Part shown: positions 14,679 to 34,786 of the stretch, one piece after another
Position numbering within the stretch: position 1 is the stretch's first letter
How the letters are laid out: every line of letters begins with the position of its first letter
The notes under the pieces: model-generated
The model's input: the letters and a program-made list of their open reading frames with translations, nothing else
What the model was told of the DNA's origin: nothing
Database searches by the model: none
Made by a program: the position numbers and the translations under genes
NCBI GenBank assembly: GCA_020058765.1
Contig: JAGVDM010000001.1
Location: 84,963-148,962, forward strand
Length of the DNA stretch: 64,000 bases
Source: Candidatus Peribacterales bacterium
GTDB taxonomy: Bacteria > Patescibacteriota > Gracilibacteria > Peribacterales > Peribacteraceae
Reading direction: 5' to 3'

Positions 14679-14695
14679 CGGCACACAACATCGCG

Positions 14696-14799
14696 CTATC
14701 ACGAGTGGTGGTGAGGGAACTGGCCCGGTGATCCACCCCCCAACAGTCCCGCGCATGCGGGAAAATGTGGGACATCCAGCCCCATACGGGGAGAGATAG
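14696..14799 (+). ncRNA. SAM-I riboswitch aptamer
   Basis: P1 CTATC/GATAG; ATCACGAG; P2 with GAGGGAACTGGCCC..TGA kink-turn; CTGG/CCAG pseudoknot; P3 with CAAC bulge; P4 CCCC-ATAC-GGGG; directly upstream of metK. Confidence 0.92.
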
Positions 14800-14816
14800 G
14801 AAGCACCTGCAGATCT

Positions 14817-24971: not shown

Positions 24972-25064
24972 TGCGTGCAGAATACCTCGGGGAGAAGGCT
25001 TGTTGCCAGAGAACCGGGCACGGTTTGTACACGACGCCACTCTCTTGTAGTAGCCTGTGTACGC

Positions 25065-25799
25065 ATGGCTCTTCTTTCGCTCAGCGACATTTCTTTTGGG
25101 ATCGGGCAGCACCAGATTCTGCGAAACATCGCTTTCGATGTAGCAGAGGGCGACATCGTGGGTCTTATTGGGCCCAATGGTTCCGGCAAAACAACACTCT
25201 TCAACGTACTCTCTGGGTTCCTTAAGCCCAGCAGCGGCGCGATTCTCTATCGTGAGGGCGACATTACCGCGCTCTCTGCGGCGCGCAGATCAAGGTTAGG
25301 GATCGGCCGTGTGTTCCAGAACTTCGGCATCTTCCGCGATATGACGCTGGAAGAAAATGTGCTCGTAGCCCTCGAAGCGCTCCCAAAAGATCGCCGTATT
25401 CAGTTGGGAGATTTGCGAACGGTAGTAGGGGAAACGCTCGAAATGGTCGGGCTCAGTTCGCATGCCAAAAAGAAAGCAGGCTGCCTTTCTGGTGGGCAGA
25501 TGCGTCTGCTGGAAATTGCTCGTACGCTCAAGAGCGGCAAGGAACTATTCCTCTTAGATGAGCCTACGGCGGGCGTGTCTCCCAAAATGACGGGACAGGT
25601 CGCCGATCTTATTACAGCACTCAAGCGTGAGGGGAAAACAGTGCTCATCATCGAGCATGACCTTCCGTTCATCGGCAGCATTTGCGATCGCGTGATTGTG
25701 ATGGATGTAGGGCAGATTGTTCTGCAGGGCACCCCGGGCGAGGTGAAGAAGAGCAAAGAGCTGCAGGAGATCTATTTTGGAGCGGACCCCACAACGTAA
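25065..25799 (+). CDS. Branched-chain amino acid-type ABC transporter ATP-binding protein (LivG/F-like)
   Basis: GPNGSGKTT, LSGGQ, LLDEPTAG, IEHD. Confidence 0.9.
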   Translation: MALLSLSDISFGIGQHQILRNIAFDVAEGDIVGLIGPNGSGKTTLFNVLSGFLKPSSGAILYREGDITALSAARRSRLGIGRVFQNFGIFRDMTLEENVLVALEALPKDRRIQLGDLRTVVGETLEMVGLSSHAKKKAGCLSGGQMRLLEIARTLKSGKELFLLDEPTAGVSPKMTGQVADLITALKREGKTVLIIEHDLPFIGSICDRVIVMDVGQIVLQGTPGEVKKSKELQEIYFGADPTT

Positions 25800-25878
25800 G
25801 GTCGTGGAGGAAAATATTGCCAAATACCTCGCAGAGCGCGAGAATTTTGCAGATATACCCCTTTTACCCCACTTATCC

Positions 25879-26997
25879 ATGAAGAAGTCATTACTCTTGG
25901 GTGCCGCAGCTCTGGCACTCGTTGGCTGCCAGCCAGCCACGCCAGACGTGATCACAAATGAGCCGATTAAAATTGGTCTGATTGCTCCTCTTACGGGCGA
26001 TGCAGCCGGTCTCGGTGCAGACGTATCCAACGGTGCACAGATGGCAGTCGCAAAGATCAACGCTGCCGATGGCATTGGTGGCCGACAGATTCAATTGATT
26101 ATGGAAGACGGCAAATGCGCAGGAGCCGATGCGGCAACAGCTGCCCAGAAGCTCGTGAATGTCGATAAGGTCGTTGCGATTGTTGGTGGCCTCTGCAGCG
26201 GTGAAACACTTGCAGCTGCTCCTATTGTAGAAGCAGCAAAGGTCATTCTGCTTTCTCCAACGAGCAGTAGCCCAGATGTGACTGCCGCAGGTGAATTTGT
26301 GTTCCGCAACTATCCAAGCGATGCGCTCAAGACCGTTGCGATGGCCAAGTATTTCCAGGATAAAGGTTTCACGAAAGTGGCCATCATCAGCGAGAACACA
26401 GACTTCTCCCAAGGATTCCGAGACTCCCTCGCAGAGCAGCTGCCTGAGGGCACAATCGTTTTCGACGAAACAGTCGATCCTGGCACAAAGGACTTCCGCA
26501 CGCTCGTGACACGCTTGAAGGATATGGAGTTCGATGTGTTCGTTCCGAACGGCAACAGCGATGCAGTGATTGGGCCAATGATCGAGCAGCTGCGTGAGCA
26601 GGGGCTTACTCAGCCAGCAGTCGGTCATGATGCGGCTGATTCCGTCACCATGGCGAAAGATCTACCAGAGGCAACGAACAACCTCTTTGTGATCAACGTT
26701 GCTTCTGAGCTTGCGGATGCAGACTTCGCCCCAATGTTTGAGGCGGAATACGGTGCACCGCAGTACGGCATCTCTTTCGCAGGTTACGCGAGTGATGCAG
26801 TGCATGTACTTGCACAGGCAATGATCGAGGTAGGTACCGATGGATCGGCATTGCAGCAGTACCTGCTGAGCATGCCGGATTACACTGGCGCAGTGGGCAC
26901 GTTCCACTTCGATCAGAACGGCGATGTGGTAGGTATTCCCTACGTTCTCAAAGAATACGTGGATGGTGAAATCATCACGCGTAATCCCCTCAACTAA
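25879..26997 (+). CDS. Liv-type ABC transporter substrate-binding lipoprotein
   Basis: Lipobox LVGC; IKIGLIAPLTG, EDGKC, GGLCSG. Confidence 0.9.
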   Translation: MKKSLLLGAAALALVGCQPATPDVITNEPIKIGLIAPLTGDAAGLGADVSNGAQMAVAKINAADGIGGRQIQLIMEDGKCAGADAATAAQKLVNVDKVVAIVGGLCSGETLAAAPIVEAAKVILLSPTSSSPDVTAAGEFVFRNYPSDALKTVAMAKYFQDKGFTKVAIISENTDFSQGFRDSLAEQLPEGTIVFDETVDPGTKDFRTLVTRLKDMEFDVFVPNGNSDAVIGPMIEQLREQGLTQPAVGHDAADSVTMAKDLPEATNNLFVINVASELADADFAPMFEAEYGAPQYGISFAGYASDAVHVLAQAMIEVGTDGSALQQYLLSMPDYTGAVGTFHFDQNGDVVGIPYVLKEYVDGEIITRNPLN

Positions 26998-27014
26998 CGG
27001 AGCACTACACAATG

Positions 27015-27048
27015 AACAGGGAGGAAGAGCGCTCTTCCTCCCTGTTTT
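27015..27048 (+). terminator. Perfect inverted repeat after the binding-protein gene (terminator or mRNA stabiliser)
   Basis: AACAGGGAGGAAGAGC|GCTCTTCCTCCCTGTT is a 32 bp perfect palindrome followed by TT. Confidence 0.75.
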
Positions 27049-27066
27049 GTGATACCGTTTCCTCCA

Positions 27067-27945
27067 ATGCAGCTCCTCGTGAACGCCCTCATTGCTGGAT
27101 CGCTCGCCGCCCTCATCGCCGGCGGGCTTGCGCTTGTGTACGGCGTGCTTGGGATCTTTAACATGGCTCTCGGGCAACTGGTGCTCATTGGCGGATACGC
27201 AACATGGTGGTTGTATCAAGTGGCGGGCTTGCCTTTGATAGTGAGCATTCTGGGTGGTCTTGCCACTGGCGCACTCTGCACGTGGCTCACGTTCGAAGTG
27301 TTCGTGAATCCTTTCTATCGCAAGCACCGCTTCCTTCCGCTGGTTACCACCATCGCCTGGAGCATGATCCTGGATGGGCTCATTTTGCTCCTCTTTGAGG
27401 AGCGTCCGCGGAGCATTATTTCGGGTTTGCCCGAAGGATTTATTCTTTGGGGGGCGCACATAAGTATGCAACAGTGCGTACTTGTATCGGTCACAGTGTG
27501 CGCACTCTGCGCGTTTGGGTACGTGTTTCATTGCACGTCCCTCGGCAGGCGCTTACGTGCCGTGGTGCAGAACACGCATGCCAGCTTGAGCCTCGGTATC
27601 AATGCTCCGCTCTTGTACCGAGCTATTTTCATCATGAGCGGCGTGTTTGCAGCGGGCGGTGGCATCTTCATTGGTATCGACCAAAACCTCTCGCCTACGC
27701 TCGGGTTTACCTACACCATCAAGGCATACGCGGCGATCATTGCTGGTGGGAAGGGGAACGTATGGGGTGCAGTGTTGTGCGCGTACATCATCGCGCTCCT
27801 CGAACAATTGCTCGTTGGCGTGCACTGGTTCAACGCCTTCTACGTCCCTGCTGGCTACCAGCAAACGGTCGCGCTCCTCTTCATCATTGGTATTCTGCTC
27901 CTGCGCCCGCAGGGATTGTTCGCTCACAAAGTCCGCTCCGCCTGA
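27067..27945 (+). CDS. Liv-type ABC transporter permease (LivH-like)
   Basis: GLALVYGVLGIFNMA, LGRRLRAV, LLLRPQGLF. Confidence 0.9.
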   Translation: MQLLVNALIAGSLAALIAGGLALVYGVLGIFNMALGQLVLIGGYATWWLYQVAGLPLIVSILGGLATGALCTWLTFEVFVNPFYRKHRFLPLVTTIAWSMILDGLILLLFEERPRSIISGLPEGFILWGAHISMQQCVLVSVTVCALCAFGYVFHCTSLGRRLRAVVQNTHASLSLGINAPLLYRAIFIMSGVFAAGGGIFIGIDQNLSPTLGFTYTIKAYAAIIAGGKGNVWGAVLCAYIIALLEQLLVGVHWFNAFYVPAGYQQTVALLFIIGILLLRPQGLFAHKVRSA

Positions 27946-27948
27946 TCT

Positions 27949-28803
27949 ATGAATTTCGCTTGGCACATCATTACGCTCATCGCGATCCAAATGCCGGCGA
28001 TACTCGGGTACAACTTCGTGTTCGGGAAAGGCAAAATCTTCCACTTCGGCCCGCTCGGCGTATCGCTCATTACCGCGTACGCATCGGTGCTCACACTGGT
28101 GCATACACAAAGCTTCGTCCTCTCATTCGTTGCCGGCTTGTGCGCCGCACTCCTCGTGTCGCTACTCTTCGCGTGGCTATCGTTCCGGCTAGAAGCAGAC
28201 GGGCTTGGTGTAATTTCTCTCGCTGTGCACCTTGGTCTCATGGCTGTGGTGTTGAATTCGAACGTGCTCACCCGGGGTGCACTCGGTATACCTGGAGTGA
28301 AGCGTATGGCGTTCTTGCAGTCCGTGAGCGACTTCGCCATTTTTAGTGGCGTCATTGCCGTCATCGCTATCATCGCGGCGTATTTCCTCAATCGCAGTGC
28401 CTTCGGCCGGCGTCTTTCCGCGCTTGCGGAGCACAATTGGTATGCCGAGGCCGTAGGTGTGAACCGGCGCCACACACATACATGGGCGTTCGTCATTGCG
28501 GCGATTGGATCTACATTCAGCAATTTTCTTTTTCCGCAGTACCTCACGCTCCTCCATCCCAGCGATTACCAATTCCATTCGTTCGTCTTCTACATCATGG
28601 TGATTGTGGCCGGGAATCCGGGGAGCGTTCTTGGTGTGGCTACCTCCACAGCGCTACTCATGATCCTGAAGGAATCCATCCGCTTCATTGCATTACCTGC
28701 AGCCATGATTGGCCCGGTGCGGCTCATGCTATTTGGTGCGGTACTCTTCGCCGCGGTGTGCTGGAGGCGAGACACGCTCTTTCCGCCGAAGCGCGAAGTG
28801 TAG
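27949..28803 (+). CDS. Liv-type ABC transporter permease (LivM-like)
   Basis: LTRGALGI, SAFGRRLSAL, AEAVGVN; multiple TM segments. Confidence 0.88.
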   Translation: MNFAWHIITLIAIQMPAILGYNFVFGKGKIFHFGPLGVSLITAYASVLTLVHTQSFVLSFVAGLCAALLVSLLFAWLSFRLEADGLGVISLAVHLGLMAVVLNSNVLTRGALGIPGVKRMAFLQSVSDFAIFSGVIAVIAIIAAYFLNRSAFGRRLSALAEHNWYAEAVGVNRRHTHTWAFVIAAIGSTFSNFLFPQYLTLLHPSDYQFHSFVFYIMVIVAGNPGSVLGVATSTALLMILKESIRFIALPAAMIGPVRLMLFGAVLFAAVCWRRDTLFPPKREV

Positions 28804-32346: not shown

Positions 32347-32760
32347 ATGACCACTTCTCAAGGACTCGCTGTTGTGCAGAACCTTTACCTGCTGCAGATC
32401 GACTTGCGCCGCTGCCTAGACGGCGACCTCTCCGACCCAGCCCAGCGCCGCGAAGCGCAGGCACGGGTGAAGGAATTCTCCACGCTCCTCAAGCAAGCCG
32501 ACTGGCGCTACATGGGCGGAGAAGATGTGCTGATGAGTTTGCAGGACATGGAGAAGGAATTCCGTGAGAAGATCGTTGCTCGTGCATCTGCACGCAAAGC
32601 GATGCCTCGTGTTGCTACAAGACGTGCTGTGCAGGCCGTGGTAAAGAAGGCCACTACTCGCCCGTCTGCAAAAGTGCGCACTGCAAAACCGGTACAGGCG
32701 AAGAAGGTCACCAAGAAGCCGGCTCGCAAGTCGCCCGCTCGTAAAACAAAGCGTCGCTAA
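32347..32760 (+). CDS. Small protein with histone H1-like Lys/Ala/Arg-rich tail
   Basis: About 75 aa helical N-domain then AKKVTKKPARKSPARKTKRR. Confidence 0.7.
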   Translation: MTTSQGLAVVQNLYLLQIDLRRCLDGDLSDPAQRREAQARVKEFSTLLKQADWRYMGGEDVLMSLQDMEKEFREKIVARASARKAMPRVATRRAVQAVVKKATTRPSAKVRTAKPVQAKKVTKKPARKSPARKTKRR

Positions 32761-33236
32761 ATCCCCTCACTAATGCGCACGATCTTTACGCGCTCCTCTT
32801 TGGGGATGAGGATCTTCAGCACGCAGTCTTTTGAGAATGTTGCTTTCACTTTCCGTGGATCCACACTGCAAGGCATGGTGACACTGCGGGAGAAGTCGCC
32901 CCAGAAACACTCCTGCAAATAGAATTGATTCTCAGGAATCGTATCGTTGTTTTTTCGTGATCCGCGAATGGTCACAACGCGATCATCTACTTCGATATCC
33001 AAGTCACTCATGCGTACTCCGGCAATCGGTGCGCGAATGATGTAGTAGTCATCCTGCTCGTAAATATCCACCGCAATCTGACCCATCGGGCGTTGTGCAG
33101 GAGGAGGGGGTGGAGCGTTTTGTGGTACTGCTGGAGCCACATTTTGCCAATTCTGCGGCTCGGGCAATTCGGTCAATTGCGTTGACTCTTGTGGTGGCCC
33201 GAAGGAGAAAATTCCGTGAAATGGCGAAGGGCTCAT
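32757..33236 (-). CDS. Hsp20/alpha-crystallin family small heat-shock protein
   Basis: VDIYE, IAGV...DLDI, IRGSR, QECFWGDFSRSV, VLKILIPK; Pro-rich N-terminus. Confidence 0.9.
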   Translation of the reverse strand: MSPSPFHGIFSFGPPQESTQLTELPEPQNWQNVAPAVPQNAPPPPPAQRPMGQIAVDIYEQDDYYIIRAPIAGVRMSDLDIEVDDRVVTIRGSRKNNDTIPENQFYLQECFWGDFSRSVTMPCSVDPRKVKATFSKDCVLKILIPKEERVKIVRISEGI

Positions 33237-33339: not shown

Positions 33340-33368
33340 TTGACCGTTCGTGTACATCTTCGTACGAT
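33340..33368 (+). promoter_or_regulatory. Sigma70-like promoter of the attenuated transcript
   Basis: TTGACC (33340-33345), 17 bp, TACGAT (33363-33368). Confidence 0.7.
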
Positions 33369-33378
33369 TGTAATCGTC

Positions 33379-33432
33379 ATGCAGCGTTTGTCTCTCATCG
33401 TCGCTCTTCTCGTCGTCCCGCCCAAGGGATAG
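33379..33432 (+). CDS. Putative Leu/Ile/Val-rich leader peptide MQRLSLIVALLVVPPKG
   Basis: 17 codons, 8 of them Leu/Ile/Val; begins 10 nt after the -10 box; the stop codon overlaps the antiterminator arm. Confidence 0.7.
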   Translation: MQRLSLIVALLVVPPKG

Positions 33433-33483
33433 AGGTGCGCCGTTGTCGACTTCCATGCAGCACCTCTCCCCGAGGTGCTTTTT
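33431..33483 (+). terminator. Attenuator: antiterminator/terminator pair
   Basis: Terminator GCACCTC-TCCCC-GAGGTGC-TTTTT (33460-33483); alternative pairing of AGAGGTGC (33431-33438) with GCACCTCT (33460-33467). Confidence 0.8.
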
Positions 33484-33504
33484 GTCTCTATTCCCCTCAT
33501 CATC

Positions 33505-33945
33505 ATGGTGCACCTGGACACCACAGAACTGGGCACAACTCACGCTCCCGCTCCTGCAGAAGCAGAGCAAATCAGTGCCATAGAAGCACAAACAGAAGCC
33601 GCTTCTCACGAAGCGTGGCGCCTGACTACTTCCATTTCCCGAATGGAGACTCGGCACTACCGCGAACGTGCGCAGGAGGTGCTCAAAAATGTGGGGAACG
33701 GCAAACCGCTCTTTAATGTAGTGGACTACATCACTGTGAGCGAGCAGCCGCAGGCGGCTCCAGATGCAGAGGATCCACGCGAGCAAACCGGTACGCTCAT
33801 TCGTGTGCGTACAACACTGTCTGGCGTTTGGCGCGAGCAGTGGATACCTACGCCCTTCAGCGATCGTGAGCGCGTAGCAGCACAATCCGCCGATATGGTA
33901 CGCAGTATGGCGCACTCGTTACTTGGGTCGCAGCAGGAAGCGTAA
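33505..33945 (+). CDS. Hypothetical protein under attenuator control
   Basis: 146 aa from ATG 33505 (MVHLDTT) after a C/T-rich leader; no recognised motif. Confidence 0.6.
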   Translation: MVHLDTTELGTTHAPAPAEAEQISAIEAQTEAASHEAWRLTTSISRMETRHYRERAQEVLKNVGNGKPLFNVVDYITVSEQPQAAPDAEDPREQTGTLIRVRTTLSGVWREQWIPTPFSDRERVAAQSADMVRSMAHSLLGSQQEA

Positions 33946-33988
33946 GAGTGTTGTAGTCACGCATGCACTTGGTCGGTATCCTCTCGTG

Positions 33989-34786
33989 GTGACCCACGTA
34001 CACGCATTGTTCCTCGGTGTCCTACAAGGACTCACAGAGTTCCTGCCTGTTTCCAGCTCTGGGCATTTGGTTCTTGCAGAAACGTTCCTGCAGTTACCTA
34101 TCGCCGAGCGGGATCTTCTTGGGTTTGACGTGCTCCTGCACGCGGCAACGGCGCTCGCATTGCTGCTGTGCTACGCGAAGATGTGGTGGAAGATCGGCAG
34201 GTCTGCATTCGTGCCTGATCCGCAGCATCGTCGGCTGCTTGGTCTGCTCATTCTTGCCACCATCCCAGGGGCGGTTGCGGGAGTGCTGCTCGATGACTGG
34301 ATCGCCGAATACACCCGATCAGTAACAGTGGTGGCAATTGCCCTTATGGGCACCGCAACAATGCTGATACTTTCCGCGTTCGGCCGCGGCAACGGAGGTG
34401 TGCATACGATTTCGGTGCGACAAGCGATGATGATTGGTGTTGCACAGGCATGCGCACTCGTACCAGGTTTATCCCGCTCAGGTCTTACCATTAGCGTCGG
34501 GCAGCTTTCCGGTCTGGCTCGTCGTGAGGCACTCGACTTTTCCTTCCTCATGGCATTCCCCATCATTGTTGGCGCGAGTGCCATGACTGGCATTGATGTG
34601 CTTCGTGGAGAGGTGCAACTGCCACCACTCTTCATATCCATCACGGGATTCATCGCCTCGTTCGTCGTCAGCATTCTCGCAATTTTTTCACTGCGGAGAT
34701 TCGTCGTAAAATTCAGCCTGGCATGGTTTGCCTTGTATCTCTTCCCTGCAGCTATAGCTCTGTTGGTCGCCAGCCGCGGTCTATGA
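33989..34786 (+). CDS. uppP: Undecaprenyl-diphosphate phosphatase
   Basis: QGLTEFLPVSSSGHL, PGLSRSG, FSFLMA. Confidence 0.95.
   Translation: MTHVHALFLGVLQGLTEFLPVSSSGHLVLAETFLQLPIAERDLLGFDVLLHAATALALLLCYAKMWWKIGRSAFVPDPQHRRLLGLLILATIPGAVAGVLLDDWIAEYTRSVTVVAIALMGTATMLILSAFGRGNGGVHTISVRQAMMIGVAQACALVPGLSRSGLTISVGQLSGLARREALDFSFLMAFPIIVGASAMTGIDVLRGEVQLPPLFISITGFIASFVVSILAIFSLRRFVVKFSLAWFALYLFPAAIALLVASRGL

Follow-up and report, generated by a model that had tools for sequence, protein, structure and literature searches.

Described attenuators and the Peribacterales leader

Leader-peptide attenuation is textbook biology for the amino-acid biosynthetic operons of free-living bacteria, and the Escherichia coli ilv and leu leaders work by alternative pairing of their RNA as regions 1:2, 2:3 and 3:4. 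We describe a candidate element of this type in a Candidatus Peribacterales bacterium (genome G000), within a 64,000-nt stretch of its DNA (the window, to which positions refer); the element precedes the genes for a 146-residue protein and for the undecaprenyl-diphosphatase UppP, and its RNA is predicted to have the same alternative pairings. Like the E. coli ilvL/ilvXGMEDA, leu and ilvBN systems, it has a short leader open reading frame (ORF) with a run of leucine, isoleucine and valine (L/I/V) codons, followed by an intrinsic terminator before the first gene. A preliminary description of the locus had noted that the ilvL peptide continues from its L/I/V run into Pro-Pro-x-Gly; ilvL indeed reads PPCG there, and the motif is common to ilvL and the G000 upstream ORF (uORF). 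The two differ in length (32 residues for ilvL, 17 for the G000 uORF), and the G000 mRNA is probably near-leaderless and lacks a Shine-Dalgarno (SD) sequence. There is no detectable sequence or Rfam relationship between ilvL and the G000 element, and whereas the E. coli leaders control ilv and leu genes, the G000 targets are an unknown protein and uppP, in a host without the pathway.

Closer parallels to particular features come from Actinobacteria. According to the available portions of two studies (PMC10272879, PMC1262725), the uORFs of Corynebacterium ilvB-II and actinobacterial ilvB, predicted by comparative genomics, likewise couple a uORF enriched in branched-chain amino acids (BCAA) to a terminator, and were identified from conserved in-frame start and stop codons; those elements precede ilvB, whereas the G000 element stands before non-BCAA genes and was found in only one genus of Peribacteria. 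The leaderless polycysteine attenuators of mycobacteria, as presented in the accessible part of the preprint (bioRxiv 10.1101/834739), likewise have a tiny ORF that opens a leaderless, or almost leaderless, polycistronic mRNA, and an amino-acid-specific codon run in this small ORF (sORF) controls the downstream genes; there the codons are for Cys and the operons cysteine-related, while in G000 the codons are L/I/V and the leaderless status is read from promoter spacing. Control beyond biosynthetic operons has been proposed for the candidate attenuators of Streptomyces leuS and trpS, but their targets, as far as the available text goes, are the cognate tRNA synthetases, whereas uppP stands outside the cognate amino-acid system (PMC1262725).

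The genes controlled by classical attenuators make, import or charge the amino acid that is sensed, and those downstream of the G000 leader have no known link to any of these; for this reason, and because there is no Rfam match, we do not place the element in any named family. A search of the full-text literature, with most subscription journals outside its coverage, returned nothing on leader-peptide attenuators in the Candidate Phyla Radiation (CPR)/Patescibacteria or upstream of uppP.

Leader segments and the modelled switch

A sigma-70-like promoter on the plus strand (33340-33368) consists of TTGACC (33340-33345), a 17-nt spacer and TACGAT (33363-33368), and matches the consensus at nine of 12 positions in a pattern scan. 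The uORF begins with an ATG at 33379, 10 nt past the -10 hexamer (11 nt in G052, the sole other species available for the genus), a spacing that predicts a transcript start 2-5 nt before the ATG and hence a near-leaderless message. Its 17 codons, MQRLSLIVALLVVPPKG and then TAG (33379-33432), include eight L/I/V residues, against seven of 17 in G052. The preliminary description had pointed out this promoter, the L/I/V-rich frame and its absence from the ORF track, and all three were borne out on reading the sequence; the uORF appears in the ORF list merely as the tail of a 51-aa ORF.

Downstream of the promoter we could recognize four pairing segments. Region 1 (33402-33410, codons 8-11) pairs with region 2 (33431-33439), which overlaps the uORF stop codon; between them lies an inner hairpin (33415-33430) with a 5-bp stem and a 6-nt loop over the V-P-P-K-G codons, identical in sequence in G000 and G052. 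Region 2 can instead pair with region 3 (33460-33467) to form the antiterminator: AGAGGTGC at 33431-33438, across the stop codon, and GCACCTCT in region 3 make an 8-bp helix, as had been proposed. Region 3 comprises the terminator 5' arm plus one base used only in the antiterminator, and region 4 (33472-33483) is the terminator 3' arm, followed by five T (the same arm and seven T in G052). The terminator itself, GCACCTC / TCCCC / GAGGTGC / TTTTT at 33460-33483, lies where it was first described and was also returned by the pattern scan, with eight pairs and a T-run; its GC-rich stem counts as 7-8 bp (33459-33483 with the five T).

The preliminary description had called for a check of two mutually exclusive folds in 33369-33490 and had likened their geometry to that of ilv/leu attenuators. 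Both folds, 2:3 and 3:4, were found, together with a 1:2 helix that it had not mentioned, and the likeness holds up in the four segments, in their conservation in G052 and in a modelled switch window that falls on L/I/V codons. The segment 33369-33490 folds at -39.4 kcal/mol (z = -3.6), with none of 200 shuffles as stable, and the G052 leader has z = -3.5. Helix 1:2, in which CGC.CUUCU (33402-33410) pairs with AGAGG.UGCG (33431-33439) around the inner hairpin, is present in the minimum free energy (MFE) structures of both species, G052 having an equivalent helix. Folded alone, helix 1:2 has -19.0 kcal/mol in G000 and -20.7 in G052, antiterminator 2:3 has -14.2 (8 bp) and -20.5 (9 bp), and terminator 3:4 has -12.8 and -13.0. 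By these calculations the element holds all four classical attenuator segments, with the pairings 1:2, 2:3 and 3:4, and the helix energies stand in the order that an attenuator needs.

The effect of a translating ribosome was modelled thermodynamically by masking all bases up to its leading edge (P site +15) and refolding the remainder. In G000 the antiterminator prevails with the A site at codons 5-12 (P 0.92-1.00) and the terminator at codons 2-4 and 13-18 (P 0.85-1.00). For G052 the model gives the antiterminator P 0.74 with codon 5 in the A site and 0.89-0.95 with codons 8-14, gives the terminator P 0.83-0.96 at codons 6-7 and 15-18, and leaves the two nearly balanced at codons 2-4 (terminator P 0.50-0.54). 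The ribosome-free MFE structure combines helix 1:2 with the terminator in both species. Six of the eight L/I/V codons in G000, and five of the seven in G052, lie inside the antiterminator windows; in the model, then, the A-site positions that free the antiterminator match the L/I/V run, and a ribosome that has reached the stop codon favours the terminator. A variant of the masking in which RNA behind the ribosome could pair across it gave a narrower window and was replaced by full masking.

We propose that the leader is a ribosome-mediated attenuator sensing the charging of Leu-, Ile- and Val-tRNA, and we judge that reading somewhat better than an even bet. Transcription would begin just ahead of the uORF ATG (33379), with translation of the 17 codons following as the RNA emerges. 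With the three tRNAs well charged, the ribosome would reach the Pro-Pro-Lys-Gly-stop end of the frame and cover region 2 (33431-33439), whereupon regions 3 and 4 would form the terminator and most transcripts would end at ~33483; this end of the frame may also keep a slowly moving ribosome on region 2 and so strengthen termination under ample supply. A ribosome waiting at the L/I/V codons (5-12) would cover region 1 and leave region 2 free to pair with region 3, no terminator would form, and the polymerase would read on into the 146-aa ORF and uppP. With no ribosome present, helix 1:2 would form, and the terminator too.

The surroundings of the leader would make the downstream genes dependent on readthrough of this hairpin. 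The upstream neighbour, hsp20 (32757-33236), is on the minus strand, making the region a divergent intergenic one; the T-run is 21 nt from the ATG of the downstream ORF (33505), and the pattern scan found neither a promoter-like nor a terminator-like site on the plus strand in 33483-34685, the gap between terminator and ORF included. Because hsp20 is divergent and no second plus-strand promoter-like site was found, the operon would be transcribed through the terminator and depend on readthrough, and with hsp20 on the other strand the hairpin cannot terminate an upstream gene in G000. A minus-strand promoter-like site (33394-33367; GAGACA, 16-nt spacer, TACAAT) overlaps the uORF start and the -10 hexamer of the plus strand. 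This site may be the promoter of hsp20, pointing away from that of the leader, and it has no counterpart in G052, where the hsp20 neighbour differs.

Neither the missing SD sequence nor the reliance on an intrinsic terminator is out of keeping with this genome. SD-like words precede candidate starts in 151 of 742 G000 genes and occur at 182 of 742 internal control positions, hence are unenriched, and translation initiation seems to be largely SD-independent; SD-less starts of both the uORF and the 146-aa ORF are therefore normal here and no objection. The genome has 96 terminator-like sites, and since 34 of them follow a stop codon on their own strand by at most 100 nt, intrinsic terminators appear to be in use. 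Only two of the 96, this site included, have a 7-mer of their own 3' arm repeated at most 80 nt upstream, and the second lies inside an opposite-strand ORF.

The codon content of the uORF is also unusual. Its best 10-residue window has eight L/I/V residues, while the maximum is seven among 1668 other intergenic sORFs with ATG starts (8-40 codons); a spurious antisense ORF kept the uORF itself out of that set, and its own figure is a manual count. Given a proteome-wide L/I/V frequency of 22.7%, eight or more L/I/V among 16 residues has a binomial P of 0.015. A codon model prefers the uORF frame in G000 and G052 alike, with a margin of 4-8 log units. All three of its Val codons are GTC, the rarest Val codon in G000 (13%).

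Conservation in the genus and rival explanations

When the leader DNA (query 33395-33518) was searched against 31 genomes, it was matched only in G052, at 73% DNA identity, a figure to be set beside UppP, which is merely 59% identical between the two. The G052 promoter is TTGACG, an 18-nt spacer and TATGCT; its uORF again has 17 codons, MAQQFVLVALVVVPPKG and then TAG, the last seven codons being the same as in G000; and the order leader, small ORF, uppP is common to both species. Codons 2-7 are heavily substituted, with ATG, frame, length and stop kept. Between codon 8 and the stop there are three differences; two are synonymous and at third positions (codons 9 and 10), and the other replaces Leu by Val. 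Combined with 2 nt inserted past the stop codon, they shift the register of helix 1:2 and make it longer in G052, so that RNA and peptide seem constrained together. The terminator arms are the same in both species and the loop is 5 nt in G000 and 3 nt in G052; with the loop varying in length, an RNA hairpin fits better than a protein operator. The pair used only in the antiterminator covaries, A-T in G000 and C-G in G052. A check of conservation in relatives, which the preliminary description had suggested, thus bears out the uORF, the helices and one covarying pair, and falls short in that RNAalifold yielded no compensatory pairs, as discussed below.

Three metagenome runs from two studies provided further contigs related to G000 (X2-X4), 88-92% identical to it and colinear over hsp20, leader and ORF, without an indel in the leader. 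Among the 40 listed of the 401 X2-X4 differences, all of them common to the three runs, seven fall in 33340-33504. None of the seven touches a promoter hexamer, the start or stop codon or any of the four pairing segments, and two of them are synonymous third positions of both Pro codons, in the hairpin loop. Taking G052 and the listed X2-X4 differences together, we count five substitutions from codon 8 onward, of which four are synonymous and at third positions and one replaces Leu by Val (binomial P 0.045).

Beyond the genus the leader could not be traced. In 900 nt upstream of uppP, none of 29 other family genomes had a terminator-like hairpin with an L/I/V-rich sORF, while the G000 control was found. 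An 18-mer pattern (at most two mismatches) matched eight genomes besides G000 and G052 among 200 of the family, all eight matches being rejected for lying inside longer frames or lacking a terminator, and a reversed-pattern control also gave eight matches. An exact 21-mer search of genome contigs matched the G052 record alone, and an exact 18-mer search of metagenome contigs gave five stretches, none of them leader-like. As hsp20 and uppP are found close together in several other genera of the family, the leader and small ORF look, from gene order, like an insertion or invention of this genus between the two genes. A single longer frame spanning the leader was rejected: the +1 frame stays open there in both species, and it runs in frame into the downstream ORF in G052 but not in G000.

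Several points weigh against a Leu/Ile/Val-sensing attenuator. The comparison comprises two full sequences from one genus plus the partial three-run view, with a single covarying pair; RNAalifold on a MAFFT alignment gave no compensatory pairs and did not recover the helices, a result that is uninformative, since the repeated arms were misaligned. Codon content gives less than it might: GTC, the rarest Val codon in G000, is not rare in G052 (19 of 60 in the four genes counted), and region 1 needs many pyrimidines in order to match region 2, which by itself puts numerous Leu and Val codons into one of the three frames, so that the L/I/V run is partly dependent on RNA structure and not fully independent evidence. 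The masking is thermodynamic, not kinetic, and a shift of the footprint edge by 2-3 nt moves the window by one codon; the terminator is short, with 7-8 pairs and five T in G000. We infer the transcription start, the translation of the uORF and the amino-acid signal; a look for RNA runs that contain this stretch found none. The Pfam search found no known BCAA link for the 146-aa protein or uppP, and as the organism also appears to lack BCAA synthesis, the usual feedback logic is missing. Finally, the available part of a study of the Streptomyces coelicolor ilvB leader reports that regulation was unaffected when its candidate regulatory codons were changed (PMC1262725).

The leader might instead be a ribosome-mediated attenuator answering to another signal, such as elongation rate or ribosome availability, slow passage through Pro-Pro-Lys-Gly (proline or EF-P status) or a translation inhibitor. 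In the masking model any stall at codons 5-12 gives readthrough; the peptide is best conserved at VVPPKG and the stop, which G000 and G052 share unchanged, with the Pro codons changed only in X2-X4 and only synonymously among the differences listed; EF-P is encoded in both genomes; and the output genes have no BCAA tie. Yet a ribosome at Pro-Pro-Lys covers region 2 and favours the terminator (A site at codon 15 or beyond in both species, 13 or beyond in G000), so that a Pro-Pro stall would reinforce the default state rather than switch it, and the L/I/V codons, exceptionally dense for an sORF, lie within the switch window. As for an inhibitor, UppP relates to tolerance of bacitracin, which does not act on the ribosome, and the operon has no ABC-F, rRNA methylase or efflux gene of the sort expected with an antibiotic-responsive attenuator. 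We regard another signal as rather unlikely. A purely structural element, a leaky or protein- or ligand-controlled terminator on which the frame is a by-product of the pyrimidine-rich strand, would account for helices that are conserved and significant by themselves, for the bias of one frame toward Leu and Val that comes with region 1/region 2 complementarity, and for the synonymous changes in codons 9 and 10, which alter the pairing of helix 1:2 and may reflect selection at the RNA level. It leaves aside the ATG, frame, 17-codon length and stop kept in G052 despite the substituted codons 2-7, the synonymous Pro-codon changes in the hairpin loop of X2-X4 (among the differences listed) and the preference of the codon model for the uORF frame in both species; moreover, no Rfam family reached its gathering score at the leader, where hits at E of at most 10 comprised one snoRNA model (10.3 bits) on the other strand. 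Its chances seem slim.

The remaining two explanations turn on what the hairpin terminates. A promoter, a short structured RNA and a terminator are the usual layout of a small RNA or micropeptide gene, and the locus might be a self-contained tiny gene for a ~105-nt small RNA or for a 17-residue hydrophobic peptide, the operon being expressed by incidental readthrough or from an unrecognised promoter. The peptide does have a 10-residue hydrophobic stretch, but that is too short for a membrane span; the repeat of the terminator 3' arm at the stop codon, rare (2/96) and conserved, is not explained by a gene of this kind; the 21 nt before the ORF offer neither room nor signal for a promoter; and the antisense promoter-like site at 33394-33367 has no G052 counterpart. 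We consider this improbable. Alternatively, the hairpin might serve to terminate a gene upstream of it. Between hsp20 and the leader, G052 has a DedA/VTT gene (PF09335, E 3e-22; L017:780-1433) on the strand of the leader, ending about 125 nt before the hairpin with its stop codon inside the -35 hexamer of the leader, and a homologue was not found in G000, where the hairpin would be a relic of gene loss. Against this, G000 and X3/X4, which have no upstream same-strand gene, retain the promoter-like site, the uORF and the helices, and a plain terminator needs neither an upstream copy of its 3' arm nor a uORF; a relic is very unlikely indeed.

Downstream genes and host biology

The first gene after the attenuator encodes a fast-evolving, soluble 146-aa protein (33505-33945, plus strand). 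That this ORF is genuine is shown by codon statistics, which put its frame about 40 log units ahead of the two others (as with the hsp20 control), and by a paired 1-nt deletion and insertion in X3/X4 that preserves the frame. A GTG within the terminator 3' arm is in frame with the ORF (33475-33504), 10 codons before the ATG in G000 and 11 in G052. A start at that GTG, giving the 156-aa gene-caller form P0001, was rejected, with the homologue P0004 and the G052 orthologue aligning from the ATG at 33505.

The preliminary description had called this gene an orphan. It does lack any Pfam family, as do its homologues P0004 and P0005, but it is not a strict orphan, given these two distant homologues and a shortened orthologue in G052. 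An HMMER search of 1.84 billion representative proteins returned P0004 (E 8.5e-19, 37% identity over the full length) and P0005 (E 2e-4); the genomic loci of the two were not found among genome contigs. The G052 orthologue has 101 aa and aligns well at its N-terminus alone (MVYLD... and MVHLD...). A word-indexed search of 5.8 billion proteins returned the 146-aa query itself alone, and the G052 orthologue likewise; a profile search of 200 genomes of the order matched G000 alone, and one of 401 phylum genomes gave one further match (E 8e-4), on inspection an unrelated protein. A match to P0003 (3077 aa) in 17 stretches (E 6e-19) was set aside as probably driven by repeats rather than homology; P0003 has many short near-identical repeat units rich in Thr, Ser, Gly and Asp. 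The AlphaFold2 model is of moderate quality (mean pLDDT 65.5), with six strands, a C-terminal helix and the first 34 residues disordered. A structure search, which had been suggested for this gene, came up empty: Foldseek against the PDB found nothing at E of 0.001 or below (best E 0.19, TM at most 0.26), and the ESM Atlas gave no usable feature match (structure TM at most 0.45).

The second gene is uppP (33986-34786, plus strand), of the BacA family (Pfam BacA, E 7e-66), with a GTG start placed by way of G052. It is probably co-transcribed with the small ORF, the gap between them being about 40 nt in G000 and 11 nt in G052. In X3/X4 the 160 nt of 33843-34004 are equal in length and too diverged to align, between flanks that are about 88% identical; this divergence hotspot runs from the C-terminal part of the 146-aa ORF across the intergenic gap into the beginning of uppP. 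The uppP gene is single-copy in G000 and G052, and a PAP2-type domain occurs in G000 only. Since uppP is single-copy, some readthrough would always occur, which fits the short terminator. The DedA family, represented by the gene upstream of the G052 leader, is linked to undecaprenyl phosphate translocation.

The organism is an uncultured one, and its G000 genome has 1.17 Mb in 10 contigs and is 99.3% complete. The preliminary description presumed the cell to be auxotrophic, and we agree: a family search found IlvC (KARI) and IlvD in neither genome of the genus, with controls positive in 14 of 14, so that on gene content the organism is judged unable to make branched-chain amino acids. This result accords with the description of Peribacteria, in the available portion of a published study, as making few amino acids (PMC4736985). 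RelA/SpoT is encoded in G000. The Liv-type ABC importer reported to be about 5-8 kb away was found 4.5-8.4 kb upstream of the attenuator (24975-28803) as a separate cluster, consisting of an ATPase, a Peripla_BP_6 binding protein and two BPD_transp_2 permeases.

The window also has an S-adenosylmethionine (SAM) riboswitch, RF00162, at 14693-14802 on the plus strand (46.7 bits; gathering score 44.4), by which G000 would use at least one other terminator-type leader control. Outside the window, on contig C6 of G000 (L066:1629-1736), is a second possible leader-peptide attenuator, with an sORF, MMMSMMMLSSRGTAACA, that has six Met in its first seven codons and a 6-mer identical to the 3' arm of the downstream terminator (6-bp stem, seven T). 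Its leader fold has a z-score of merely -2.1. The sORF lies 153 nt after a DEAD-box helicase gene, of which the hairpin may be the plain terminator, and 30 nt before a 367-aa ORF that has no Pfam family and no match in G052.

Taken as a whole, the picture of a near-leaderless L/I/V-codon attenuator that evolved in one genus of symbiotic, auxotrophic CPR bacteria, reads the charging of imported branched-chain amino acids as a nutritional cue and raises a lineage-specific protein and UppP, and thus serves the envelope instead of amino-acid supply, is one we put forward tentatively, as a possibility with less than an even chance. If true, it would be the first attenuator described in the CPR and a classical sensor rewired to cell-wall physiology, and host-dependent bacteria would be able to reuse attenuation for sensing nutrient supply in general. 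The hypothesis makes a rare testable regulatory prediction in a group in which almost nothing is known of gene regulation, and the element, having seemingly arisen inside a single genus, would be a compact example of how such switches originate.

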